From Candidatus Zixiibacteriota bacterium (GTDB lineage Bacteria > Zixibacteria > MSB-5A5 > CAIYYT01), in the NCBI GenBank assembly GCA_040235515.1, contig JBECKX010000067.1:1-15981 (forward strand): DNA of 15,981 nucleotides. The letters run 5' to 3'. Position 1 is the first letter of the stretch, and each line of letters opens with the position of its first letter. Position numbers and translations under genes: made by a program. Below, piece by piece: positions 2,976 to 15,981 of this stretch. The notes below the pieces were generated by a model, which did no database searches, was not told where the DNA came from, and saw only the letters and a program-made list of their open reading frames with translations.

Positions 2976-3824
2976 TCAGTAGGCCATCATCGTTTCCAGC
3001 CTGCGAATCCGCTCCTCCATCGGAGGATGTGTGCTGAACAGGCTCGACAGCCCGCGGCGTCCGAAGAACGGGTTCACGATAAACATATGCGCCGTCGCGG
3101 TATTGGCCCGCATCGGAATAGCCTGAACGCCCTTGTGCAACTTCCGCAAAGCGTTGGCCAGATCGCGCGGGTTGCCATGGAGCTTCGCCCCGGCTTCATC
3201 CGCCAGGTATTCACGTGACCTCGAAATCGCCATCTGAATCATCATCGCCGCCAGCGGTGCCACGATCACAGTAATCAACAGTCCGAGTATCCCTCCGTTG
3301 CCACGTTCGTCGGAGCGGCCCCCGGCGAACATCGCCGTCCACTGCGCCATGTACGCCAGCATCGAAATCGCTCCCGCGAATACCGCTGCGATCGTTCCGA
3401 TCAGAATATCTCTATGCTTCACGTGTGCCAGTTCATGCCCCAGCACACCCCGCAGTTCGTTTTCATCCAGGATTCGCAGTATCCCCTGAGTAACCGCCAC
3501 GGCAGCATGCTCCGGGTTTCTACCCGTCGCAAAGGCGTTCGGCGTTTCCGACGGAATCACGTACACCTTCGGCATCGGCAAACCGGCACGCTGTGCCAGC
3601 TCGCGTACCGTATTGAACAGCCGCGGCTGGTCCGTCTCGGTCACCTGCTTGGCGCGATACATCTTCAGGACGATCTTGTCCGAGTACCAGTAGGAGATAA
3701 CATTACCGCCCAGGGCAAAGAGAAATGCTATCATCATTCCACCTCGGCCCCCAACCAGGAATCCTATCCCGACCGCCAGCGCCATCAGTAGCGCCATCAA
3801 AAATGTAGTTTTCAGCGTGTTCAC
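2976..3824 (-). CDS. htpX: Zinc metalloprotease HtpX (M48 family)
   Basis: 282 aa, GTG start with GGAGG upstream. Motifs [19 protein letters not shown] (HExxH), [10 protein letters not shown] and LFSTHPP, plus transmembrane segments. Confidence 0.96.
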
Positions 3825-4311: not shown

Positions 4312-4444
4312 AATTTTCTCCTCCGATTCAAATCCAGTTTCTCTTAGAACTACGCAGCAGGGCGGCAATCCATGGTTGCTAAAAGTCACTCCTTTGGCTA
4401 TTTTCAACGTGTACCACAGAGTCCCCAATCGAAAGGAGCTTTCA

Positions 4445-5458
4445 ATGCGACTCTCCACAACTCAGAGAGTCTCAATCTTCGCTCTGGTTTCCTTCCTGCT
4501 TTTGCTCTTCACCCCATCTGCATTCGCGCAATGCGGAGATTTTGACAACAGCGGCACCAATACGATCACAGACATCGTTGACCTGAACGCCTACCTCTTC
4601 GTCGGCGGGGCGGCCCCGCAGGACTACGATTATGCAGACTTCGATCTGCACCAGAAACTGACTTTCAACGATCTGGCCCATCTCTATGCCTGTGCCTTCA
4701 TCTGCGATTTCTATGATGTTCAATGCCCGCCGACCGAGGCCGCGATTGATCCGGAAGTCGACCCGGCCTTTGTCATCAAGTATCCTGAAGCTGTGCCGAT
4801 TGGGCACACCAGCTATGCCATTACGCTTGAGGCCGACGCGCCTTTCAAATCTCAGGCTATCTGCCTCCCGCTGCGACTCAGGATCGACGGAGCGGTTCCC
4901 CAAATCGACTCGATCGTCACTCCCTCCAGCTCGAGCTACTCTGACGCCAGTGGCAGCGTACCCCTGCGTTACAATGCTCTGATTCATCCCGACTCAGGAA
5001 TCGTCATCGTCAGCGGCACCAAGGGCAACAGCATTCCCTCGTTCCTGCTCTACGACCAGATCGCAACAATCTTTGTGACTGTCCCGATTCGCCCATATAA
5101 ACAGCAGATTGATCTGCAGTTTGTCGAACTGACCCCCGAAGAGGCTGCGCCGGGTCAGGAAAACTCGATCTTCGCCATGTATCTCGGTCCCGGGTTTCTG
5201 AACACGGGAGAACTCCCCAAAGAACCGGTGCTGGAGAGCGACTGTTGTATCCTCCCCGGTGATGTCAATGGCGACGGTCATACCACCATCACCGACGCAG
5301 TGACCATCATCTGCTTCATCTTTGGTGGTTGCTCGACAGCGGGAGTTTGTCCCCAGACGGTCGACATCGATGGCAGCGGCAGTATCAATATTGCCGATGC
5401 AGTCGCCTTGATTAACTACATCTTCGCCGGCGGACCGCCACCGGTCTGCGGACCATAG
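4445..5458 (+). CDS. Secreted protein with N- and C-terminal dockerin type I-like (EF-hand pair) domains
   Basis: ATG at 4445 follows AAAGGAG. Signal peptide ends AFA|Q. N-terminal CGDFDNSGTNTITDIV...ADFDLHQKLTFNDL and C-terminal PGDVNGDGHTTITDAV...VDIDGSGSINIADAVALINYIFAGGPPP are duplicated Ca-binding dockerin motifs. Confidence 0.82.
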   Translation: MRLSTTQRVSIFALVSFLLLLFTPSAFAQCGDFDNSGTNTITDIVDLNAYLFVGGAAPQDYDYADFDLHQKLTFNDLAHLYACAFICDFYDVQCPPTEAAIDPEVDPAFVIKYPEAVPIGHTSYAITLEADAPFKSQAICLPLRLRIDGAVPQIDSIVTPSSSSYSDASGSVPLRYNALIHPDSGIVIVSGTKGNSIPSFLLYDQIATIFVTVPIRPYKQQIDLQFVELTPEEAAPGQENSIFAMYLGPGFLNTGELPKEPVLESDCCILPGDVNGDGHTTITDAVTIICFIFGGCSTAGVCPQTVDIDGSGSINIADAVALINYIFAGGPPPVCGP

Positions 5459-5583: not shown

Positions 5584-5697
5584 ATCCCCCTCCGAACCGG
5601 AGCCCCTTACTACCGCGGCCCAATACAAACTTTCATGCCTAACCACTTGCGTACGAACAGAAACAGGGAAAATCGTCTCCTTATTCCAAAATTCTGC

Positions 5698-5725
5698 TTG
5701 ACAATCGCAACGAATATAGTATAAA
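5698..5725 (+). promoter_or_regulatory. Putative sigma70-type promoter of the RiPP operon
   Basis: TTGACA (5698-5703), 16 nt, then TATAAA (5720-5725), in an AT-rich intergenic stretch and pointing toward the precursor genes. Confidence 0.65.
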
Positions 5726-6036
5726 TTGTCGCAATTGCAGGCCCCACAGCCATTCAAGGCAGAAACAACTCTTAAAATCAGGCTTTAATAAGCCACTCTG
5801 AAAATGCGCCTTTCACAGATGCAAGCTAGTAGTACATCTGCTGTCAGAGGGGGACGCAGCCAATCACCGATGAACCGGAGCGATGCCCGAATCGTCGCGA
5901 TCCGGAAGACTCTGCCGCTTAACTCCGACTCAGATACACATACTCATTATAGACTCGAAAAGCTTACGGTTGAACTGTGGGATGAGCGCTCTGCTTATCT
6001 CGACTGTCATTTCAACTCATATCGGGAGGGAGTCAG

Positions 6037-6159
6037 ATGATTTACTTGATCGACCCTCAGGATGCCGCCATCGAAAAATGCCCGGCCAAGTGCTTCCTTA
6101 AGTGCAGTGGCGTCTGTGGCATTAAGCCGTTGTACGGTGTTCCAATTGATTTCGAATAG
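6037..6159 (+). CDS. RiPP precursor peptide 1, 40 aa: MIYLIDPQDAAIEKCPAKCFLKCSGVCGIKPLYGVPIDFE
   Basis: Translated by hand. RBS GGGAGGGAG, ATG 6037, TAG 6157-6159. Has a CxxxCxxxCxxxC core and an LYG motif, a paralog 284 nt downstream, and lies directly upstream of the radical SAM genes. Confidence 0.9.
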   Translation: MIYLIDPQDAAIEKCPAKCFLKCSGVCGIKPLYGVPIDFE

Positions 6160-6179
6160 GCCCGTTTGAGGCCTGGTGT

Positions 6180-6211
6180 CGCCGGTGAGTGCTGGTAAGC
6201 TCTCATCGGCG
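6180..6211 (+). other. Stem-loop after precursor gene 1
   Basis: CGCCGGTGAGTGCT-GGTA-AGCTCTCATCGGCG forms a long stem with one mismatch and one G-T pair. Smaller hairpins follow at 6217-6241 and about 6267-6285. Confidence 0.5.
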
Positions 6212-6320
6212 TCAAAACCGCCCGAGCCCGATCCGGGTGGTCGCGACTGAGATGTTTGGATGTGGAGGCAAGCATCCCGCTTGTCTGCACTGTTACTTAA
6301 ACACTTCGGGAGGGAGTTAA

Positions 6321-6443
6321 ATGATCTACTTGATCGACCCTCAGGATGCTGGGATCGAGAAATGCCCGACCCTCTGCTTCTTGAAATGCAGTGGCGTCTG
6401 CGGTATTAAACCGCTCTATGGCGTCCCGACAGAAACCGAATAG
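6321..6443 (+). CDS. RiPP precursor peptide 2, 40 aa: MIYLIDPQDAGIEKCPTLCFLKCSGVCGIKPLYGVPTETE
   Basis: Translated by hand. Same RBS GGGAGGGAG, ATG 6321, TAG 6441-6443. 34/40 residues are identical to precursor 1, with 13 synonymous codon differences. Confidence 0.9.
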   Translation: MIYLIDPQDAGIEKCPTLCFLKCSGVCGIKPLYGVPTETE

Positions 6444-6465
6444 ACCTACCTGAAAGGTCTGCAAG

Positions 6466-6496
6466 CGCAGGGGGAGCAAACAATGCTCCCTCTGCG
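6466..6496 (+). other. Stem-loop between the precursor genes and the maturase genes (mRNA stabiliser or leaky terminator)
   Basis: CGCAGGGGGAGCA-AACAA-TGCTCCCTCTGCG forms a 13-bp stem with one G-T pair and has no U-tract. Confidence 0.55.
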
Positions 6497-6545
6497 TAAG
6501 TCGGCAATCGTCGCTGTCGATCGATCGCGAAGGTCAGGAGGACTT

Positions 6546-7967
6546 ATGACGGACTTCAATGCGAACCATAACGCGAACCATAACGCGAACAGCAACCCGA
6601 ACAATGTCGCGAACCTCAAAGCGAAAAAACTATCGCGCTACAATCACTTCCAACCGTGGCAGGGTGGCTACCACATCGCTTATAACGCACTCTCCGGCGC
6701 GCTGGCGGTGATGACCGAAGAAAACTACCGGGCCTACAATCAAATCGCCGACAAAATCAATTCGACTAACGGACACTCTACTTTTGACGAGGGGGAGCAG
6801 GAACTCCTGAAGCAGCTTGAGTTTGGTCGTTTCGCCTATTCCGCCGAGAATGACGAACTCGACAGCATCAAGTTCACCAACAATCTCCACCGCTATGATC
6901 AAACCAGTCTCGGTCTGACCATCGCACCAACAATGGCCTGTAACATGGCCTGTCACTATTGTTACGAGAACAATACCACTCGCAAAATGTCGCCGGAGGT
7001 GATCGAGGCGCTCCTCGACTTCATCGACAGGCGCGCCGATCAACTCCGCACCGTCGATATCTGCTGGTATGGCGGCGAACCGCTCCTCGCACTCGATATC
7101 ATCGAGGATATCACCGAGAGTCTTATCGAACTGAGTGAAGAGAAGCACTTCGAGTATGTCGCGACGATGATTTCCAACGGTTATCTCCTCACACCCGCAG
7201 TCGTTGATCGGCTTGTTGAACTCAGGGTGAAAATGGTGCAGGTTACGCTCGACGGCCCGGCGGCATCACACAATGCCAAACGCCCGCTCAAAAACGGCAA
7301 GGAGAGCTTCGCGACGATCATCGAGAACCTCAAGTACGCCTCCACCAAACTTGCAATTGGTGTGCGTGTTAATGTCGATAAGTCATTTTCGCTTGAGATG
7401 ATTCGCCAACTGCTCGGCGACCTGAAAGCCGCTGGTCTCGAACGCCGCATCGGCATCTACTTCGGACAACTCGAACCGGCGACCCAGGCCTGCGGCAACA
7501 TCGCGGATGCCTGCTACGGCAACGCTGATTTTTCCAACATCGAGTCGGAATACTTCGAGCTGTTGTTGAGCGAAGGCTTTCGTATCGAGAAACTCCCGCA
7601 ACCGGTGGGCGTCTTCTGTATGGCGCAACGTATCAACGCCTTCGTCATTGACCCGGAGGGCTTTCTCTACCGTTGCTACAACTACGTTGGGGATCAAAGT
7701 CACGCCGCCGGCAACATCAAGGATGGCGTGGTAGACTACCAGAACAAGAATTTCAAAAAGCTGTTTCAGTTCAACGCGCTCGAGTCACAGCGCTGCTTGA
7801 ACTGTGATATTCTCCCGATCTGCCTCGGAGGCTGTCCGGCGCAAAGGGCTGATCGGGCTCAAACCGAAGATGATGTTTGTTTGAGCTGGAAGCACAATCT
7901 TGGCCCCATGCTCAACATAATTGCCGCTTCGCGTCAGCAGAAGTTGCAGGCGGCGAGTAAGGAGTAG
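6546..7967 (+). CDS. Radical SAM/SPASM peptide maturase with N-terminal RRE-like extension (putative thioether-forming)
   Basis: ATG 6546 follows AGGAGG. Contains CNMACHYC (CxxxCxxC), WYGGEPLL, SNG and QVTLDG. SPASM cysteines are CMA...LYRC...CLNCDILPICLGGCP...C. The ~100-aa N-terminal region KLSRYNHF...YNALSGAL resembles the RRE domains of peptide-modifying rSAMs. Confidence 0.88.
   Translation: MTDFNANHNANHNANSNPNNVANLKAKKLSRYNHFQPWQGGYHIAYNALSGALAVMTEENYRAYNQIADKINSTNGHSTFDEGEQELLKQLEFGRFAYSAENDELDSIKFTNNLHRYDQTSLGLTIAPTMACNMACHYCYENNTTRKMSPEVIEALLDFIDRRADQLRTVDICWYGGEPLLALDIIEDITESLIELSEEKHFEYVATMISNGYLLTPAVVDRLVELRVKMVQVTLDGPAASHNAKRPLKNGKESFATIIENLKYASTKLAIGVRVNVDKSFSLEMIRQLLGDLKAAGLERRIGIYFGQLEPATQACGNIADACYGNADFSNIESEYFELLLSEGFRIEKLPQPVGVFCMAQRINAFVIDPEGFLYRCYNYVGDQSHAAGNIKDGVVDYQNKNFKKLFQFNALESQRCLNCDILPICLGGCPAQRADRAQTEDDVCLSWKHNLGPMLNIIAASRQQKLQAASKE
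6558..6605 (+). repeat. 12-nt in-frame tandem repeat encoding NANH-NANH-NANS-NPNN
   Basis: Four degenerate copies, AATGCGAACCAT AACGCGAACCAT AACGCGAACAGC AACCCGAACAAT, at the 5' end of the first rSAM gene. Confidence 0.8.
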
Positions 7968-7972
7968 GGAAC

Positions 7973-9094
7973 ATGAAGAAAGAAACCAACCAATTCAGGT
8001 TCTTCCCACAATCAGTGGTCTGGGAGATCACCTTCGCCTGTAACATGCGTTGCATCCATTGCGGAACCGCTGCGGGCAAGAAACGCCCCGACGAACTCAC
8101 GACCATCGAAGCGCTCAATCTCGTCGACGAACTCGCCGACCTCGGCTGTGAAGTCGTCGCCATCTCGGGCGGCGAGCCGCTCATGCGCAGCGACTGGCAC
8201 CAAATCGCCAAACGCTTCGTCGATCGTGGCGTCAAAACCTGCTTGATCACCAATGGTCTCGCTGTCACCGAGGAGATCGTCGATCAGTTCATCCAGCTGG
8301 GGCTGACCCGCATCGGCGTCAGTTTCGATGGCACGAAGAATACTCATAACTACATCCGCCAGCGTGATGACAGCTACGACCAGGTTATCAACGCGATGAA
8401 ACTGATGGCCGCCAAAGGCATGCCCTTTGCCGCCGAGAGCCAGATTTCAAACATCAACGTCTACGAACTCGATCAGATGCGCGAGATCCTGATCGAAGCC
8501 GGCTGCCCTCTCTGGCGTATCCAGATGACCACCAGCACCGGCCGCATGGCAGCCAACAAAGAATTGGTGCTCTCGAAGGAAAACTACAATCTGCTCGTCG
8601 ACAAGATGCTGGCATACCAGAAACGCAATCATGAAATCATGATCGATGTCGGCGAAAACATCGGCTTCTACGGCTGCAAGGGTACCGAATTGTGGCAAAA
8701 TACACCCTACTTCGGCTGCTTTGCCGGTACCCGTGTAGCCGGTATCGAATCGAACGGCACCATCAAAGGTTGTCTCTCGATGCCGGAAGATTTCGTGGAG
8801 GGCAACATCCGCGACTCCTCCTTCACCGAGATCTGGAATGACCCGACCAAGTTTGCCTACAACCGCGCCTTCACTCGTGACAGCGCGGAGGGCTTCTGTC
8901 ACGACTGTAAATATCTGCCGCTGTGCCGTGGTGGATGTGCCACCACCTCATACTCAGCGTCTGACTGTCGCGCCAATAACCCCTACTGCACCTATCGCAT
9001 CGAGCAGGAACAGGGAATAGCGGCGCCGGCAGACTCCGAAGTCGTGGCTCAACTGTTGCGGCGTTTCGAGCCGATTGCAACTGTCGAAGTCTAA
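7973..9094 (+). CDS. Radical SAM/SPASM enzyme, splicease (PlpX/PcpX)-like, putative tyramine-excising maturase
   Basis: 373 aa. Motifs VVWEITFACNMRCIHCGTAAG...ELTT.EAL, SGGEPLMRSDW, WRIQMT...G, GENIGFYG, GCFAG...GIESNGTIKGCLSM, GNIRD, GFCHDCKYLPLCRGGC and NNPYC. The rSAM/SPASM call is certain. The splicease subfamily call rests on remembered motif similarity, not on an alignment. Confidence 0.85.
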   Translation: MKKETNQFRFFPQSVVWEITFACNMRCIHCGTAAGKKRPDELTTIEALNLVDELADLGCEVVAISGGEPLMRSDWHQIAKRFVDRGVKTCLITNGLAVTEEIVDQFIQLGLTRIGVSFDGTKNTHNYIRQRDDSYDQVINAMKLMAAKGMPFAAESQISNINVYELDQMREILIEAGCPLWRIQMTTSTGRMAANKELVLSKENYNLLVDKMLAYQKRNHEIMIDVGENIGFYGCKGTELWQNTPYFGCFAGTRVAGIESNGTIKGCLSMPEDFVEGNIRDSSFTEIWNDPTKFAYNRAFTRDSAEGFCHDCKYLPLCRGGCATTSYSASDCRANNPYCTYRIEQEQGIAAPADSEVVAQLLRRFEPIATVEV

Positions 9095-9163
9095 ACCCGG
9101 CTTTCCGTCACGAAATACCGCCCGCTTCATTGAAGTGCGAACGAGAATCAGCGGAGGTAAGCT

Positions 9164-10600
9164 ATGCCGCAGAACAGCCCGCGTATCCTGATCCTCTATC
9201 CATCCTGTTTCTACTATCCTGCCTGGATGGAACGAGTCGAAGTCAAGACGCCACTGCTGCTCATGGCTTCATACCTGCAGCAATTCTACCCGGTCGAGTA
9301 CGCCGATTTCGAAATCACTATCGGTCGACCCAACACACCGATCCAGATTCGCCGCTTCGAGCGTAAAGTCCGTGAGTTCCTCGCGCAGGCAGATTTTGAT
9401 ATCCTTGCCGTCTCCTGCTGGACCAGCCTCTCTTACAAAGCGACAATCAAGGTGGCTCAAATCTGTCGCGAACTCTGCCCCGACAAGCTGATCGTGGTAG
9501 GGGGGTATCATCCCTCCGCACGGCCTCACGAGTTCCAGTCGGAGGACCAGCTCTTTGACTACATCATCTGTGGCGAGGGCGAACTCGCCCTGCGTGAGTG
9601 TGCCCGACAATTCGTTGCTTCCGGTCGACCCTCCGCCACCACCTTCGTCAACGCGCCGATCCTGCCGCAGGAGGCCTTCGTCCCCCACGATTGGGATCTG
9701 ATCTCCAGCTTCGTGAAACTCAATTTCCCCCAGGGACTCGACAACGTCTACCTCTTCCTCTCGCGTGGCTGTCCGTTCGACTGCGCCTTCTGCATGGAAC
9801 CGTTGAAGGAGCGAAAGTGGCGCGCCTACTCCCCGGAACTGGCGGTGCAGGAAATCGACTCCGCGGCGGGCCGGTTTCAACCGCATTCGATCTCGCTCTG
9901 CGATGCCTGCTTCGGCATGCGCCCCGCCTGGCGTAAAGACTTCCTCAAGCGGCTGGTCGATCTGAGTCCCCCGTACTGGGTCACTCTCGAAACCCGGCCG
10001 GAATATCTTGACGAGGAGGATGTCAAGTTGCTTTCCCGGTTGAAAGTTGAGATCCAGCTTGGAATCGAAAGCTGCTCACCCGATATGCTGCGGATCATGC
10101 GCAAGAGCAAACAGCCGGAGCACTTCCTGCGCGAGTTCAAACGAGCCAGCGAACTGATGTCGGACCATGGCGTACTTCATCGCGCCAATCTGATCTTCAA
10201 CCATCCCGGCGAAACCCGTAAAACCCTCAACGAGACTTTCCAGTTCATCGATGAAATGACCGCCCGCAGCGATTCTGCCCTGATGTGGGCCGCTCACGGC
10301 TTCATGCATTTTCCCGGTTGCGATTGCGACCGCAATCATGCACACTATGAGAGCAGCTTTGGCGCCCACCAGCCCTGTGGCGATTGGTGGCACGAGGAGC
10401 GCGATCAGTATGAAAACAGCCTGCGCACGGTTCCCTCGTCTGAGTTGGCCGGAGACGGGATCGAACTTTGGCGCACGCTGCTGCGCGAGCGCGACGACTC
10501 CATGAAGCACTCCCTCTCCGACAAAGCTGTGAAGTTTGCGTCGGCGAAATATTTTCCGCACTGGAAAGATAATGAACCCACCCACTCCATCGGTCGGTAA
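9164..10600 (+). CDS. Cobalamin (B12)-binding radical SAM protein, putative class B methyltransferase
   Basis: 478 aa, GGAGG upstream. N-terminal B12-binding Rossmann motifs PLLLMASYL, DILAVSCWT, IVVGGYHPS and DYIICGEGE, followed by SRGCPFDCAFC, LGIESCS..ML..MRK and IFNHPGET. Confidence 0.9.
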   Translation: MPQNSPRILILYPSCFYYPAWMERVEVKTPLLLMASYLQQFYPVEYADFEITIGRPNTPIQIRRFERKVREFLAQADFDILAVSCWTSLSYKATIKVAQICRELCPDKLIVVGGYHPSARPHEFQSEDQLFDYIICGEGELALRECARQFVASGRPSATTFVNAPILPQEAFVPHDWDLISSFVKLNFPQGLDNVYLFLSRGCPFDCAFCMEPLKERKWRAYSPELAVQEIDSAAGRFQPHSISLCDACFGMRPAWRKDFLKRLVDLSPPYWVTLETRPEYLDEEDVKLLSRLKVEIQLGIESCSPDMLRIMRKSKQPEHFLREFKRASELMSDHGVLHRANLIFNHPGETRKTLNETFQFIDEMTARSDSALMWAAHGFMHFPGCDCDRNHAHYESSFGAHQPCGDWWHEERDQYENSLRTVPSSELAGDGIELWRTLLRERDDSMKHSLSDKAVKFASAKYFPHWKDNEPTHSIGR

Positions 10601-12344
10601 CTGGCCCAAGTATCAGCGACTCTGGCGGTACCTGCGCCCATTCTGGAAACTCGAACTCCTCTCCTTCCTGATCCTCGCAGTCCTGGCTCTGCTGCAACTG
10701 GCGCTTCCCGTCGCCCTGCGCTATATGGTCGATGACCTGATTCCCGGGCTCGATCTCTCCGGTGACCTCTGGCTCTACCTCACACCGATCCTCTTCTTCG
10801 GCGGGGTCCTGGTTGGCGCATATATCCTGCACCTGGCACTCGCAGTCGCGCGCGACTACCTCGCGGCCTACATCGGCGGAGGCATCATCGTCGACATCCG
10901 CGCACAACTCTTCGATCATCTTCAGAAACTGTCCCTGAGATTCCATCAGCAAAAGCAGGTGGGGGAGATCATGTCGCGCATGATGTCAGATGTGTCGCGG
11001 CTTCAGGAACTGCTCACCTCGGTCCTGCTCTCTTTCCTGACTAATTGCTTCTTCCTCCTGGCGATCCTGGTCTACCTCCTGATCACCAACTGGTATCTGA
11101 CTCTGATTACTCTCGCGCTCGTGCCGGTCACTATCTGGCTGACCTATATCTATGGCAAGAAGATGAATGTCGTTGCCGAAGCGCTGCAGCGAACAATCGC
11201 GCGCCTCTCCGCCAAGCTGCAGGAGACGCTCGTGGGGCTGAAAGTCATCAAATCGTTCGGGCAGGAGCGCAATGAGTTGCAGAAAACCCATAGCGTCCTC
11301 AGCTCACTCTGGCGCACATATATCAATTACTCAGTGACGTCATCACTCTCCGGCAACCTCGTTTACGTCGTCAGCATGGTCGGACCCATCACGGTACTCT
11401 GCATCGGTATCTATCTCGTCGCCAGCGGCTCGATGACCCTCGGTGCCCTGATTGCCTTCTTCTGGCTGGCCTTCTATCTGTTCATGCCGATCCAGGCCCT
11501 CTCAAAAGCCCGCGTGCAGATTCAGGCCTCCATGGCTTCCGTGGACCGCGTGTTCGAATACCTCGACGAACCGGTCGCCGTCTCCGAACCAGAGCATCCA
11601 GTGACGCCGGCGACGATCGCAGGCTCCCTACAGTTTAACGCGGTCTCCTTCGCCTACGAATCTCAGATTCCGGCTGTCCGTGAGATCAACATTACTATCA
11701 ACGCCGGCGAAAAGGTCGCCATTGTGGGGCACTCCGGTAGCGGCAAGAGTACGATCATCAACTTAATCCTCCGCCTCTATGACCCCGATCAGGGCGAGGT
11801 CACCCTCGATGGCGTTGACCTCCGCAAGCTCTCGATCGCGACGCTGCGTGACAACATCTCCGTAGTCGACCAGGACCCGCTGCTGTTTCATGCTTCGGTT
11901 GGCGAGAATATCGCCTATGGAAAACCGGATGCATTGCGTGACGAGATCGAAGCCGCTGCGCGTGTCGCCAACATCCACGACTTTATCGCTGCACTGCCGA
12001 ACGGCTACGACACGATCGTTGGCGAACGTGGTGTGACGCTCTCCGGTGGGGAGAAACAGCGGATCTGTCTGGCGCGGGCCGTGATCAAAGACCCGCGTGT
12101 GCTGCTGCTCGATGAGGCCACCTCCGCGCTCGACACCATCTCCGAGCGGCTGATCCAGCAGTCACTCGATAAAATCCTGCAGGGCAAGACCGCAGTAATC
12201 GTGGCGCACCGACTCTCAACCGTCAAAAAAGCTGACCGCATCATCACAATGGAGCGGGGTCGCATTATCGATCAGGGGAGTCACACCGACTTGCTCGCCC
12301 GCTCACAACTCTACCGCGACCTGGCAGAACACCAGTTGGCCTGA
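10572..12344 (+). CDS. ABC exporter, fused permease/ATPase (MsbA/ABCB-like), no C39 peptidase domain
   Basis: Probable ATG at 10572 overlaps the upstream gene end by 29 nt. Six-TM domain, Walker A GHSGSGKS, signature LSGGEKQR, Walker B LLLDEATSALD and H-loop AHRLST. Confidence 0.93.
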   Translation: MNPPTPSVGNWPKYQRLWRYLRPFWKLELLSFLILAVLALLQLALPVALRYMVDDLIPGLDLSGDLWLYLTPILFFGGVLVGAYILHLALAVARDYLAAYIGGGIIVDIRAQLFDHLQKLSLRFHQQKQVGEIMSRMMSDVSRLQELLTSVLLSFLTNCFFLLAILVYLLITNWYLTLITLALVPVTIWLTYIYGKKMNVVAEALQRTIARLSAKLQETLVGLKVIKSFGQERNELQKTHSVLSSLWRTYINYSVTSSLSGNLVYVVSMVGPITVLCIGIYLVASGSMTLGALIAFFWLAFYLFMPIQALSKARVQIQASMASVDRVFEYLDEPVAVSEPEHPVTPATIAGSLQFNAVSFAYESQIPAVREINITINAGEKVAIVGHSGSGKSTIINLILRLYDPDQGEVTLDGVDLRKLSIATLRDNISVVDQDPLLFHASVGENIAYGKPDALRDEIEAAARVANIHDFIAALPNGYDTIVGERGVTLSGGEKQRICLARAVIKDPRVLLLDEATSALDTISERLIQQSLDKILQGKTAVIVAHRLSTVKKADRIITMERGRIIDQGSHTDLLARSQLYRDLAEHQLA

Positions 12345-12383: not shown

Positions 12384-12570
12384 GCCGATACACACCCCGT
12401 CTTCGTTTCTCGCAAGGCTCGAATCGAATCCACCCCTCTCAAGAGGGGAGTTCGAAAGGATAGATGCAGTTGTAGGGTCACAGGCGAACACTTTGCTACT
12501 GGTCTTGTCATTCTTGGTTCGACCCAGATCCATGCCTTTTCCGTGTGGGGTGTACGTCCTCGTGCACCGC
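12384..12570 (+). repeat. 187-nt palindrome-containing repeat, copy 1
   Basis: Ungapped match to 15645-15831, roughly 85% identical by hand count. Contains CCCCTCTCAAGAGGGG and ends in the GGTGTACGTCCTCGTGCACC hairpin module. Confidence 0.85.
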
Positions 12571-12764: not shown

Positions 12765-13745
12765 ATGAAAATTCTTATAATCGGCGGAACACAGTTTGTC
12801 GGACGGCACCTCGTTGATGAGCTCCTCAAAGACAAACATGAAATCACCCTCTTCCACCGCGGAGAGACAAACAAGAACCTATTCCCACAGGTCGAAGAGA
12901 TCCTTGGTGATCGCGATGGCAACATCGACAAGCTCGCGGGCCGAACCTGGGATTGGTGCATCGATACCTGCGGCTATCACCCGCGCGTGGTCAGGCAATC
13001 AACTCAGCTTCTTCGGAACCAGGTAGCCAACTACCTCTTCATCTCAACCTGCTCGGCCTACTCTTACGACAATGAGGGGCCGGTGACTGAGGATGGTCTC
13101 CTCCACACGCCCATCGACGAATCGATAGAGCAGGTAGATCGCCACACTTACGGTCCCCTCAAGGTGATGTGTGAGGATGTTGTCGCTGAGGATTTCCCCG
13201 ATAATCACCTGATCATCAGACCCGGCATCATCATCGGCCCGCACGATCCTACTGATCGCCTCGTCTATTGGTTGCGACGCTTCTCGCGGGCGGACAAAGT
13301 TCTTTGTCCCGACACGAAGGATCAACCGGTGCAGTTAATCGATATGCGTGATATGGCCGTTTGGATTGCCTCACTTGTGAGCAGGGGAACGACAGGCATC
13401 TTCAACGCCGCCGGACCGGAAACTCCGGTTCCCTTCGGTGACCTGATTACGAGGTTGAGAGCAATTTTCGACAGCATGGCCGAACCGGTCTGGGCTGATC
13501 TCGAGTTCCTTAAGAACGCTGATCTCCCACCCGGCTCATTACCGTTCTGGCTCGCCGGCGCAAAGGAGAAGTACAGCCTGTTCCAAGCTGACTGTGCAAA
13601 GGCTCGCTCAACCGGCCTCAGATATCGCCCTCTGGAGGAATCGTTTAAGGACACCTACGAATGGGATAAGGGTAGGGTGGGTGTTGATCTTGTGTCAGGA
13701 CTCAGCCTGCAACGCGAACAGGAGCTGCTCGCACAGCTCCCGTAG
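12765..13745 (+). CDS. NAD-dependent epimerase/dehydratase family (atypical/extended SDR) oxidoreductase
   Basis: 326 aa. MKILIIGGTQFVG Rossmann motif, GDR, YLFIST..AY, YGPLK (YxxxK), IIRPG.I.GP.D and QLID.RD. Confidence 0.9.
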   Translation: MKILIIGGTQFVGRHLVDELLKDKHEITLFHRGETNKNLFPQVEEILGDRDGNIDKLAGRTWDWCIDTCGYHPRVVRQSTQLLRNQVANYLFISTCSAYSYDNEGPVTEDGLLHTPIDESIEQVDRHTYGPLKVMCEDVVAEDFPDNHLIIRPGIIIGPHDPTDRLVYWLRRFSRADKVLCPDTKDQPVQLIDMRDMAVWIASLVSRGTTGIFNAAGPETPVPFGDLITRLRAIFDSMAEPVWADLEFLKNADLPPGSLPFWLAGAKEKYSLFQADCAKARSTGLRYRPLEESFKDTYEWDKGRVGVDLVSGLSLQREQELLAQLP

Positions 13746-14475
13746 GTCATGCCTTCTTGGGGCATGACGCACGGATGCAATCTGCGTTTGCCTCTCGTCC
13801 GACTTGTGCGCGGTGTACGTCCTCGTGCACCGCTCTCATGGTGCCGCCATTCCGGGCTTGCCCCGGAATCCATCTTTGTCAGGCCGAGTCTATTCGGCCC
13901 AACCACCGCAACCGAAAGGGAGTAGGGAAGTAGGTCATGCCCTCTTGGGGCATGACGCACGGATGCAATCTGCGCTTGCCTCTCGTCCGACTTGTGTGCG
14001 GTGTACGTCCTCGTGCACCGCTCTCATGGTGCCGCCATTCCGGGCTTGCCCCGAAATCCATCTTTGTAGGACCGACTTGATTCGGCCACATCACGCGACC
14101 GTAAGGGAGTAGGGAAGTAGGTCATGCCCTCTTGGGGCATGACGCACGGATGCAATCTGCGCTTGCCTCTCGTCCGACTTGTGCGCGGTGTACGTCCTCG
14201 TGCACCGCTCTCATGGTGCCGCCATTCCGGGCTTGACCCGGAATCCACCAATGTCAGGCCGAGTCTATTCGGCCCAACCACCGCAACCGAAAGGGAGTAG
14301 GGAAGTAGGTCATGCCCTCTTGGGGCATGACGCACGGATGCAATCTGCGTTTGCCTCTCGTCCGACTTGTGCGCGGTGTACGTCCTCGTGCACCGCTCTC
14401 ATGGTGCCGCCATTCCGGGCTTGACCTGGAATCCATCATTGTCAGGCCGAATTCAACCGGCCATATCTTGCGACC
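13742..14475 (+). repeat. Tandem array of four ~188-nt REP/BIME-like mosaic units
   Basis: Units start at 13742, 13930, 14117 and 14305. Each has four hairpins: GTAG-GTCATGCC..GGCATGAC, GCGGTGTACG-TCCT-CGTGCACCGC, ATTCCGGG-CTTG-(C/A)CCCGGAAT and a GGCCGA..TCGGCC-type stem. Confidence 0.9.
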
Positions 14476-15247: not shown

Positions 15248-15550
15248 GCACCGTCATTCCGGGCTTGATCCGGAATCCACGCCTTTTCGGTGCGTGGTGT
15301 ACCTCCTCGTGCACCGCACTCACGGCACCGTCATTCCGGGCTAGACTCGGAATCCACGCCTTTTCCGTGCGCGGTGTACGTCCTCGTGCACCGCACTCAC
15401 CGCACCGTCATTCCGGGCCTGATCCGGAATCCACGCCTTTTCGGTGTGCGGTGTACGTCCTCGTGCACCGCACTCACCGCACCGTCATTCCGAGCTTGCC
15501 CCGGAATCTATTTTTGTACGGCCGAATTCATTCGGCCACATCCCGCGACC
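15248..15550 (+). repeat. Tandem array of 77-nt two-hairpin units (3 full copies plus 1 partial)
   Basis: GCACCGTCATTCC starts at 15248, 15325, 15402 and 15479. Each unit joins the GTCATTCCGGGCTTGATCCGGAATCC and GGTGTACGTCCTCGTGCACC modules that also occur in the 188-nt array. Confidence 0.88.
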
Positions 15551-15560
15551 ATACGGAAGC

Positions 15561-15587
15561 GTCATTCCCGCGCAGGCGGGAATCCAG
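15561..15587 (+). repeat. GTCATTCCCGCGCAGGCGGGAATCCAG palindromic element (REP/RPE/dRS3-like)
   Basis: ATTCCCGC-GCAG-GCGGGAAT hairpin. It fits the widespread ATTCCC-N8-GGGAAT class of small intergenic repeats. Confidence 0.75.
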
Positions 15588-15644
15588 GATCGCAGGAGGT
15601 CAGACATTCTTGTCTGACTTTATGTCGACGGCTTTTCCAACCTT

Positions 15645-15831
15645 GCCGATACACACTCCGTCTTCGCTTCTCGCAAGGCTCGAATCGAATTCACCTCTCT
15701 CGAGAGGGGACTTCGGAAGTCTCGGTGCACTTATAGGGTCCCAGGCGCACACCGCGCTACTGGTCTGTTCAATCCGGGTTCGACCCGGAAGCATGCCTTC
15801 TCCGTGTGCGGTGTACGTCCTCGTGCACCGC
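15645..15831 (+). repeat. 187-nt palindrome-containing repeat, copy 2
   Basis: Direct-repeat partner of 12384-12570, followed by another GTCATTCCGGGCTTGACCCGGAATCC module. Confidence 0.85.
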
Positions 15832-15873
15832 TCTCATTGTGCCGTCATTCCGGGCTTGACCCGGAATCCAAAT

Positions 15874-15928
15874 GAAGGTCAAGTTCCCTTGGGACTTGAC
15901 AGTCGGGTTCCAAGGGAACCCGACCTGC
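15874..15928. repeat. Inverted pair of REP-like hairpins
   Basis: GAAG-GTCAAGTTCC-CTT-GGGACTTGAC on the plus strand, then GCAG-GTCGGGTTCC-CTT-GGAACCCGAC read on the minus strand. The two are tail-to-tail, 1 nt apart. Confidence 0.65.
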
Positions 15929-15981
15929 TGCCTGAACGATAGGAAAGGGCAGGTGCCATTCGCCCCTGCCGAGAAGAGCAG

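Follow-up and report, generated by a model that had tools for sequence, protein, structure and literature searches.

The contig JBECKX010000067.1 of a Candidatus Zixiibacteriota bacterium (assembly GCA_040235515.1, 3.59 Mb in 218 contigs) was analysed over its entire length of 15,981 bp, referred to here as the window. It carries one co-directional operon composed of two genes for peptides of 40 residues, three genes for radical S-adenosylmethionine (SAM) enzymes, hereafter rSAM, and the gene of an ATP-binding cassette (ABC) exporter. This cluster is real, conserved and common in one uncultured phylum, and it probably makes a small exported peptide that bears sulfur cross-links as well as a protease-blocking ketoamide.

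All genes of the operon are read from the forward strand. They are preceded by a conserved upstream block (about 5665..5767, forward strand, limits approximate) that was delineated by a consensus scan and by comparison within the genus. It encloses a promoter-like site, TTGACA-N18-TAAATT, at 5698-5727 (TTGACA at 5698-5703) that matches 10 of 12 consensus positions. The roughly 100 nt around this site are kept in a sister species, at the same-genus locus L032, whereas conservation between the two is absent from the remainder of the 5' leader. The peptide genes pepA1 (6037..6159) and pepA2 (6321..6443) are followed by rSAM1 (6546..7967), by rSAM2 (7973..9094), which encodes an rSAM/SPASM enzyme devoid of a recognition element (RRE) for peptides that are made by the ribosome and modified after translation (RiPPs), by a gene for an enzyme with B12-binding and rSAM domains (B12-rSAM, 9164..10600) and by the ABC exporter gene (10572..12344). 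The frame of rSAM1 is open from its first ATG at 6483, and its likelier start is the ATG at 6546, which lies behind the Shine-Dalgarno sequence AGGAGG (6536-6541) and gives a protein of 473 residues. For the exporter, the ATG at 10572 was taken as start rather than the TTG at 10536 given in the list of open reading frames (ORFs). The genes rSAM1 and rSAM2 are separated by 5 nt and rSAM2 and B12-rSAM by 69 nt, and the exporter gene overlaps the end of B12-rSAM by 29 nt. Upon recomputation, all of these elements and distances were found where the initial annotation had located them.

The two peptides are 85% identical and share the same layout, in which an N-terminal MIYLIDPQDA stretch holding the MIYLIDP motif is followed by four cysteines set as C-x3-C repeats (C-x3-C-x3-C-x3-C), by the segment IKPLYGVP and by a tail of four residues. 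Each gene has the Shine-Dalgarno sequence GGGAGGGAG 4 nt before its start, at 6024-6032 for pepA1 and at 6308-6316 for pepA2. Their coding regions differ at 26 of 123 nucleotides, with 13 synonymous and 6 non-synonymous changes among the differing codons; in codons 29-36, which encode IKPLYGVP, six synonymous and no non-synonymous differences were counted. As judged from these codon differences, both peptide genes are evolving in the manner of coding sequence, and this pattern of synonymous change, taken with the gene order that recurs in other genomes, puts the arrangement beyond chance. No third copy of the peptide was found elsewhere in the genome.

Gene order and precursor family

Of the 285 genomes of the phylum, for which most record titles read Zixibacteria, 136 were matched at E<=1 when pepA1 was searched in six frames, many of these matches being weak. 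A profile of rSAM2 orthologues (E<=1e-90) was matched in 84 of the 285; among high-quality genomes the count is 67 of 198, and by genus it is 39 of 130. When one genome per species was scanned for the gene pattern over 185,579 species, 69 loci were obtained. By record title, 33 of them come from Zixibacteria, Zixiibacteriota or GN15, 25 from Ignavibacteria-type bacteria and 8 from a plain 'bacterium', and one each from Eisenbacteria, the FCB group and Terriglobales; the records titled Zixibacteria and those titled Ignavibacteria fall into the same class as the window genome. A fixed order, peptide(s)-rSAM1-rSAM2-(B12)-ABC, recurs across these loci. Among the 20 loci recovered through a peptide match, 18 have both rSAM1 and rSAM2 beside the peptide and two are orphan peptide genes; the ABC gene was seen in 17 of the 18 and the contig ends first in the remaining one. 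The initial annotation had named as a check the co-occurrence of the gene set and of peptides with MIYLIDP, Cys and YG in other genomes, and the 69 loci and the 18 of 20 peptide matches bear it out. Orphan precursors were noted at L036 (G017:C2) and L047 (G139:C20), away from rSAM genes and in genomes that hold a full cluster elsewhere.

Clustering of the neighbouring ORFs of the 69 loci placed the two SPASM rSAMs, which were grouped together, in 67 loci, the ABC gene in 52 and the B12 gene in 37. Beyond the SPASM rSAMs, only the ABC and B12 genes recur broadly, and neither a protease nor a separate RRE protein was found to recur among these neighbours. Two proteins encoded on the minus strand of the window, an S9 oligopeptidase B (607-2763) and an HtpX protein (2976-3824), were considered as leader proteases and set aside, since each is a neighbour within the same genus only. 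The B12 gene is present in 35 and absent from 27 of the 62 loci with sufficient downstream sequence. No peptide feature clearly predicts its presence: Met or Cys precedes Tyr in 23 of 50 peptides from B12-positive loci as compared to 4 of 25 from B12-negative ones, in genomes that are related, and near-identical peptides were found both with and without the gene.

The peptides of the family were collected as small ORFs lying at most 3 kb upstream of rSAM1 and selected on the N-terminus alone (M-x-[aromatic/aliphatic]-[LIVMF]-[LIVMF]-[DENSQ]-P), the rest of the sequence being left unconstrained, which avoids circularity in the counts of YG and Cys. This yielded 126 peptides, 96 of them unique, with up to five divergent precursor copies per locus. 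No peptide satisfied this rule at eight loci, and at five of these the upstream sequence is shorter than 60 bp. A YG near the C-terminus, nearly always as P-[L/M/C]-Y-G-[V/I], was observed in 92 of the 96 unique peptides, and the residue preceding Tyr is Leu or Met in 79 of these and Cys in 13. All 96 contain cysteine, from one residue (2 peptides) through two (19), three (39) and four (30) to five (6). The module of four cysteines proposed for thioether formation in the initial annotation is therefore confirmed as regards the cysteines themselves, found in every peptide, and not as regards their number, so that 'four thioethers' would be specific to this species. In an alignment of 33 diverse peptides, M1, P7, Y33 and G34 are invariant, and near-invariance is seen at Y3, L4, D6, P31 and one Cys. 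In sequence terms, the family is made of two fixed ends, an N-terminal handle and Pro-X-Tyr-Gly, around a hypervariable middle that bears the cysteines.

At 13 of the 69 loci, hybrid sensor histidine kinases (PAS/GAF-HisKA-HATPase-REC) adjoin the cluster, often directly upstream of the peptide genes; examples are L064:29-3367, L084:652-3297, L086:10378-12990 and L111:319-3501, with nine more. This adjacency, along with peptides that are small, exported and variable between species, is what one would expect if the product were a quorum-sensing-like signal read by a sensor kinase and not a protease inhibitor. Such a role appears quite unlikely, given that no sensor kinase was found in the window by NCBIfam and Pfam scans, that kinases of this sort are numerous and their grouping was based on common domains, which means that their adjacency at 13 loci may be due to chance, and that characterised spliceotides are reported to inhibit proteases only by virtue of the ketoamide (PMC11626197).

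Enzymes and exporter

The protein encoded by rSAM2 has as top NCBIfam models TIGR03913 (248.8 bits, cut-off 591.75) and TIGR04103, the nif11-class peptide maturase 3 (245.3 bits, cut-off 725), and in Pfam it matches Radical_SAM at 99.1 bits and SPASM at 41.8 bits. Below the two top models come TIGR04133 (198 bits, the next family) and, among others, NirJ2 (179), AhbD (172) and MftC (153), with PqqE at 95 bits. We take TIGR04103, by its model name, to correspond to IPR026482. PlpX, the first splicease, is described as a member of IPR026482 (PMC11002830). In an alignment of 14 orthologues of rSAM2, the CxxxCxxC motif (C23, C27, C30) and eight C-terminal cysteines are invariant, and a conserved SGGE stretch occupies residues 65-68. 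By sequence, its best solved relatives in the PDB are SkfB, BlsE and PqqE, and no splicease structure was present among these matches.

The resemblance to MftC and PqqE, the invariance of Tyr and Gly in the precursors and the wide occurrence of the cluster in the phylum would also fit peptides serving as precursors of a small redox cofactor derived from the invariant Tyr, in the manner of pyrroloquinoline quinone or mycofactocin. This origin is very improbable: the loci hold up to five divergent precursors whose Cys-rich cores are hypervariable, an exporter is present yet no peptidase or partner dehydrogenase recurs among the neighbours, and the cluster occurs patchily, in 84 of 285 genomes.

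A HMMER search with rSAM2 over 1.84 billion representatives returned 718 matches at E<=1e-30. The best 78 of the 150 listed representatives were scanned, and 76 of them have TIGR04103 or TIGR03913 as top family, the two exceptions being P0125, with TIGR04133 on top, and the fusion protein P0186, with Clo7bot on top via its C-terminal half. Since these relatives share the top models and yet none reaches a cut-off, rSAM2 belongs, by profile comparison, to a large uncurated splicease-like clade outside the curated family. Its 120 best homologues are all named 'radical SAM protein', and in the ESM Atlas it fell into generic rSAM/SPASM clusters; cluster look-ups returned no functional names.

Two relatives are informative as to the company kept by this clade. 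The nearest outgroup representative that could be traced to contigs, P0124, is 43% identical to rSAM2 and was found at three metagenome loci, where one to five tandem ORFs of about 60 residues lie directly 3' of its gene, which have a conserved leader in common and bear one to three xYG[V/I] motifs in a tail that varies. No homologue of rSAM1, of the B12 enzyme or of the ABC exporter was found within the fetched flanks of these loci, which indicates that the association with YG belongs to the rSAM2 clade and is independent of a Cys-directed partner. Such loci look like a plain and uncharacterised spliceotide family on GC-rich metagenome contigs. At two outgroup loci (L121:6153-6581 and L123:798-1901), the precursor leader includes RIAPVKCEKNPEAPEC. 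The second relative, P0186, is a protein of 938 residues in which an rSAM2-like N-terminal half (34% identity) is fused to an rSAM1-like C-terminal half (32%), suggesting that the two enzyme types share one pathway in another lineage too. It originates from a 252-kb NCBI contig, and its C-terminal half is Clo7bot/CteB-like.

A complex of rSAM2 with pepA1, SAM and three 4Fe-4S clusters was modelled. It reached an interface score (ipSAE, interaction prediction score from aligned errors) of 0.79 as compared to 0.00 for the best control, a value that expresses model confidence and whose calibration, in which the mark was attained by 116 of 157 solved complexes and by 2 of 215 mismatched pairs, does not extend to the own alignments and riding ligands used here. 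Contacts agree between the runs to at least 80%, and the predicted local distance difference test (pLDDT) of the partner is at least 59. Peptide residues 1-7 contact positions 297-302 and 315-319 of rSAM2, in the C-terminal SPASM-domain region. Residues 29-37 (IKPLYGVPI) contact positions 16, 61-65, 88-92, 112-115, 153-155 and 180-184, among which are positions beside the cluster loop and the SGGE stretch, and the Cys-rich middle makes no confident contact. The LYGV of the peptide is thus predicted to sit at the SAM site of rSAM2, an arrangement that mirrors the AlphaFold models described for PlpX, PcpX and RhaX with YG at the SAM pocket (PMC11414181). The assignment of LYG to rSAM2 in the initial annotation is backed by the top models, the 92 of 96 peptides with YG, the YG precursors of the outgroup and the complex model.

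It could still be that rSAM2 does not splice and that it introduces another radical change at Pro-X-Tyr-Gly, such as an epimerisation, a modification at a beta-carbon or a cross-link of the Tyr through C-C, C-O or C-S, perhaps with a Cys as partner. The shortfall of rSAM2 below the cut-offs of both splicease-like models and the good scores of other SPASM families (TIGR04133, NirJ2, AhbD and MftC) would be in line with this, the complex model gives a position and not a chemistry, and the constant pairing with a Cys-directed enzyme, once as a fusion, could mean a joint chemistry. On the contrary, the splicease-type models lead the others by about 50 bits, in the nearest outgroup the precursors carry several YG motifs and a partner enzyme is lacking, and Leu or Met before Tyr in 79 of 92 peptides is like the native spliceotide sites reported in PMC10533398. 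A non-splicing rSAM2 is therefore regarded as unlikely, though not to be neglected, and tyramine excision remains the preferred activity.

For rSAM1, the top NCBIfam models are the Clo7bot maturase (320 bits), TIGR04463 (293) and CefB (224), all of them matched below cut-off. The curated models of thioether synthases were not reached either, with 98.1 bits out of 425 for the SCIFF maturase, 147.8 out of 340 for PapB and 102.4 out of 500 for CcpM. The NCBIfam model of the SPASM domain gave 58.8 bits (cut-off 27). Among solved structures, the closest to rSAM1 in sequence is CteB (5wgg, E 7e-18). In the same way, an AlphaFold2 model of rSAM1 based on 19 orthologues (mean pLDDT 81.9) found its best fold match in CteB (5why/5wgg) over 452-462 columns, with template modelling (TM) scores of 0.62-0.70 and with the N-terminal domain of strand-strand-strand-helix-helix-helix type included; further fold matches were anSME, TigE, ChlB and SuiB. 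Residues 27-116 of the model form four strands and two helices, after which come a short strand and one more helix. From this secondary structure and from the full-length match to CteB, we infer an RRE-like N-terminal domain. The enzyme is predicted to be a thioether synthase acting on the Cys-rich segment, and the attribution of the cysteines to rSAM1 in the initial annotation gains from CteB as the best solved match and from the presence of at least one Cys in 96 of 96 peptides.

The third rSAM enzyme matches the Pfam domains PF02310 (B12-binding, 42.8 bits, cut-off 32.1) and PF04055 (Radical_SAM, 68.8 bits). Its matches to curated families are weak; the RiPP C-methyltransferase model TIGR03975 gave 68 bits, below its cut-off of 281.85. 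Its AlphaFold2 model (pLDDT 89.5) best matches TsrM, OxsB, MgmA, AprD4, TokK and CysS. The enzyme is thus predicted, from its model, to adopt the fold of class B cobalamin rSAM enzymes and to be an optional C-methyltransferase. Enzymes of this fold most often methylate, and other activities occur among them. The B12-rSAM of the initial annotation was upheld by this class B fold; methylation as a constant of the system was not, as 27 of 62 loci lack the gene, which makes methylation an optional tailoring. Taken together, the enzyme assignments of that annotation are supported in silico by sequence and models, and none was contradicted.

As for the ABC protein, Pfam detects ABC_membrane and ABC_tran only, with no C39 peptidase domain. 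Its NCBIfam matches lie below cut-offs, and those to peptide-cleaving transporters start past the peptidase part. By its domain content, the protein is an MsbA-like exporter and not a peptidase-containing transporter (PCAT).

Other features of the window

Directly 3' of pepA2, a scan for minus-strand terminators revealed a short palindromic stem, AGACCT...AGGTCT (6442..6460, unstranded). It has no T-run on the forward strand and could be a hairpin that stabilises or attenuates the transcript. As to riboswitches or other known RNAs, the 310-nt leader gave no convincing match in Rfam (best E 0.12). A 78-residue ORF at 5804-6040 was considered as a PlpY-like helper and rejected: it matches no family, it has no homologue in any locus, that of the same genus included, and indels break its frame in the sister species, so that it is not a gene.

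A 166-nt contig from one wastewater metatranscriptome run spans 6308-6470, thus all of pepA2, with three differences. It gives a weak hint of pepA2 expression, because DNA may occur in RNA libraries and the source may be a close relative. This run contains a small share of the sequence words searched, and its other pieces aligned with the window were dismissed as matches of 35-53 nt to conserved domains from other organisms.

Directly upstream of the operon promoter, a protein of 360 residues with a C-terminal dockerin type I domain is encoded at 4376-5458 (forward strand). Several related loci likewise have dockerin-domain proteins nearby, yet these are not a conserved neighbour. On the other side of the operon, a 188-bp unit is repeated in 3.8 tandem copies with 93% matches at 13742-14450, between an SDR-like gene and an HhH-GPD glycosylase gene, and has no Rfam match. 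The unit holds palindromic elements of about 28 nt that are found in the window at 12543-12570, 13742-14450 and 15251-15870 and that recur, with 43 matches, on many contigs of the genome. These palindromes look like a dispersed repeat family of the repetitive extragenic palindromic type. A 225-residue ORF at 15265-15942, which overlaps an array of palindromes with a period of about 77 nt, is probably not a gene.

Proposed pathway and known systems

The chemical steps, their order and the biological role that we infer from the observed genes, conservation, motifs and fold similarities would be as follows. The conserved promoter block would drive pepA1, pepA2 and the four downstream genes, and the invariant N-terminal MIYLIDP would act as recognition motif to recruit both SPASM enzymes. 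rSAM1 would then join Cys sulfurs to carbons of other residues, each thioether lowering the mass by about 2 Da. With the N-terminal motif docked on its SPASM domain and Pro-Leu-Tyr-Gly taken into its SAM site, rSAM2 would excise the equivalent of tyramine from Tyr33 to leave an alpha-keto-beta-leucine amide (-135.07 Da). The B12 enzyme would add one or more C-methyl groups, a step that is dispensable in the family, and the MsbA-like transporter would export the product. The resulting ketoamide may inhibit serine or cysteine proteases, a role proposed by analogy with the characterised spliceotides of Rheinheimera, in which protease inhibition is reported to require the ketoamide (PMC11626197). 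The whole chain, from dual SPASM recruitment through thioethers, tyramine excision and methylation to export, is considered to have slightly better than an even chance of being right.

Several observations weigh against it. As assessed with profile models, the tie of rSAM2 to proven spliceases is one of closest model and not of membership, both of its scores being below the splicease-like cut-offs and these cut-offs being reached by none of its 78 nearest representatives scanned. For rSAM1, the 320 bits obtained with the Clo7bot model compare to a cut-off of 600. Class B folds include the non-methylating OxsB and AprD4. Four of the 96 unique peptides have no YG, one of them being truncated, one carrying YS and two ending in another C-terminus. 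Support for expression comes from a single short contig of a single RNA library, and the score of the complex model is, as said, one of model confidence. Finally, neither a leader protease nor a C39 peptidase domain was found by Pfam or by the clustering of neighbouring ORFs.

A wider reading, which is plausible and somewhat short of an even chance, is that the cluster is the founding example of a phylum-wide RiPP class in which a precursor of 40 residues with a 7-residue handle is acted on by two unrelated rSAM/SPASM enzymes. The products would be thioether-stapled, and their Pro-X-Tyr-Gly would be turned into a ketoamide or into another Tyr-derived structure, the latter being made jointly with the Cys chemistry.

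If this wider reading is true, the product would be the first natural product to unite tyramine splicing, thioether macrocycles and C-methylation, and it would rank among the main protease inhibitors or signals secreted by Zixibacteria. A stapled and spliced precursor of 40 residues would provide a rigid, genetically encoded scaffold for ketoamide protease inhibitors, and a recognition motif as short as MIYLIDP would be useful in peptide engineering. The cluster is among the few conserved secondary-metabolite loci of this uncultured phylum, and its product may shape the interactions of these sediment and wastewater bacteria with their neighbours.

In the literature searched, no paper was found that joins a splicease with a thioether synthase or with a B12 enzyme; the survey of Scott et al. 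2022, which lies outside this coverage, may list the family. That study is reported to have screened rSAM-SPASM enzymes for neighbouring YG motifs, to have detected these in 189 genera and to have confirmed 27 pairs (PMC10849128). Nothing relevant was found on the peptide motifs or on OhkG, FlmE, Clo7bot and CefB. Queries combining Zixibacteria and RiPP gave metagenome surveys only, those combining ketoamide, thioether and radical SAM gave none, and those combining tyramine, SPASM, cobalamin and thioether gave reviews only. According to a 2022 review, the final products of spliceotides from native hosts were still elusive (PMC9811515).

The spliceotide systems, which comprise PlpX and PcpX with a Y protein and the binary RhaX, RcsX and RasX, resemble the present one in that rSAM2 is an rSAM/SPASM protein with PlpX-type top models and that its precursors carry a conserved [L/M]-Y-G site. 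To our knowledge, the ketoamide of the known examples is found in otherwise little-modified peptides. The residue X of native XYG sites is described as Met or Leu (PMC9811515, PMC10533398), and spliceases outside cyanobacteria are said to work without a Y protein (PMC11414181), so that the lack of such a protein here is no argument against splicing. On the contrary, rSAM2 differs from these systems by scores far under the family cut-offs, by its constant pairing with a CteB-like rSAM enzyme and by the usual presence of an ABC exporter and a B12-rSAM. The precursors differ as well: at about 40 residues, they open with a motif of 7 residues rather than with a leader of Nif11/NHLP type or a long helical one, they hold one YG each and, in 13 of 92 YG peptides, a Cys stands before the Tyr.

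With the ranthipeptide and sactipeptide systems, such as those of the SCIFF maturase CteB and of PapB, the cluster has in common a Cys-rich core and an rSAM1 that shares the RRE-like domain, the rSAM barrel and the SPASM domain of CteB. It differs in that rSAM1 is closest, below cut-offs, to the uncharacterised Clo7bot, TIGR04463 and CefB models, that the cysteines follow a C-x3-C spacing, vary from one to five and show no obvious register of Asp or Thr acceptors, and that a second and unrelated rSAM/SPASM enzyme is predicted to act on the same peptide. Enzymes of the PoyB/PoyC type are RiPP C-methyltransferases of the class B cobalamin rSAM kind. The B12 enzyme has the same B12-binding and rSAM layout and, in its model, the same fold as TsrM, MgmA/QCMT, TokK and CysS of this class, from which it is set apart by weak curated-family matches and by a gene that is missing in 27 of 62 similar loci. 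Each enzyme family is known in kind, and it is their combination, which has no characterised member, and not a new principle, that makes this system of interest.

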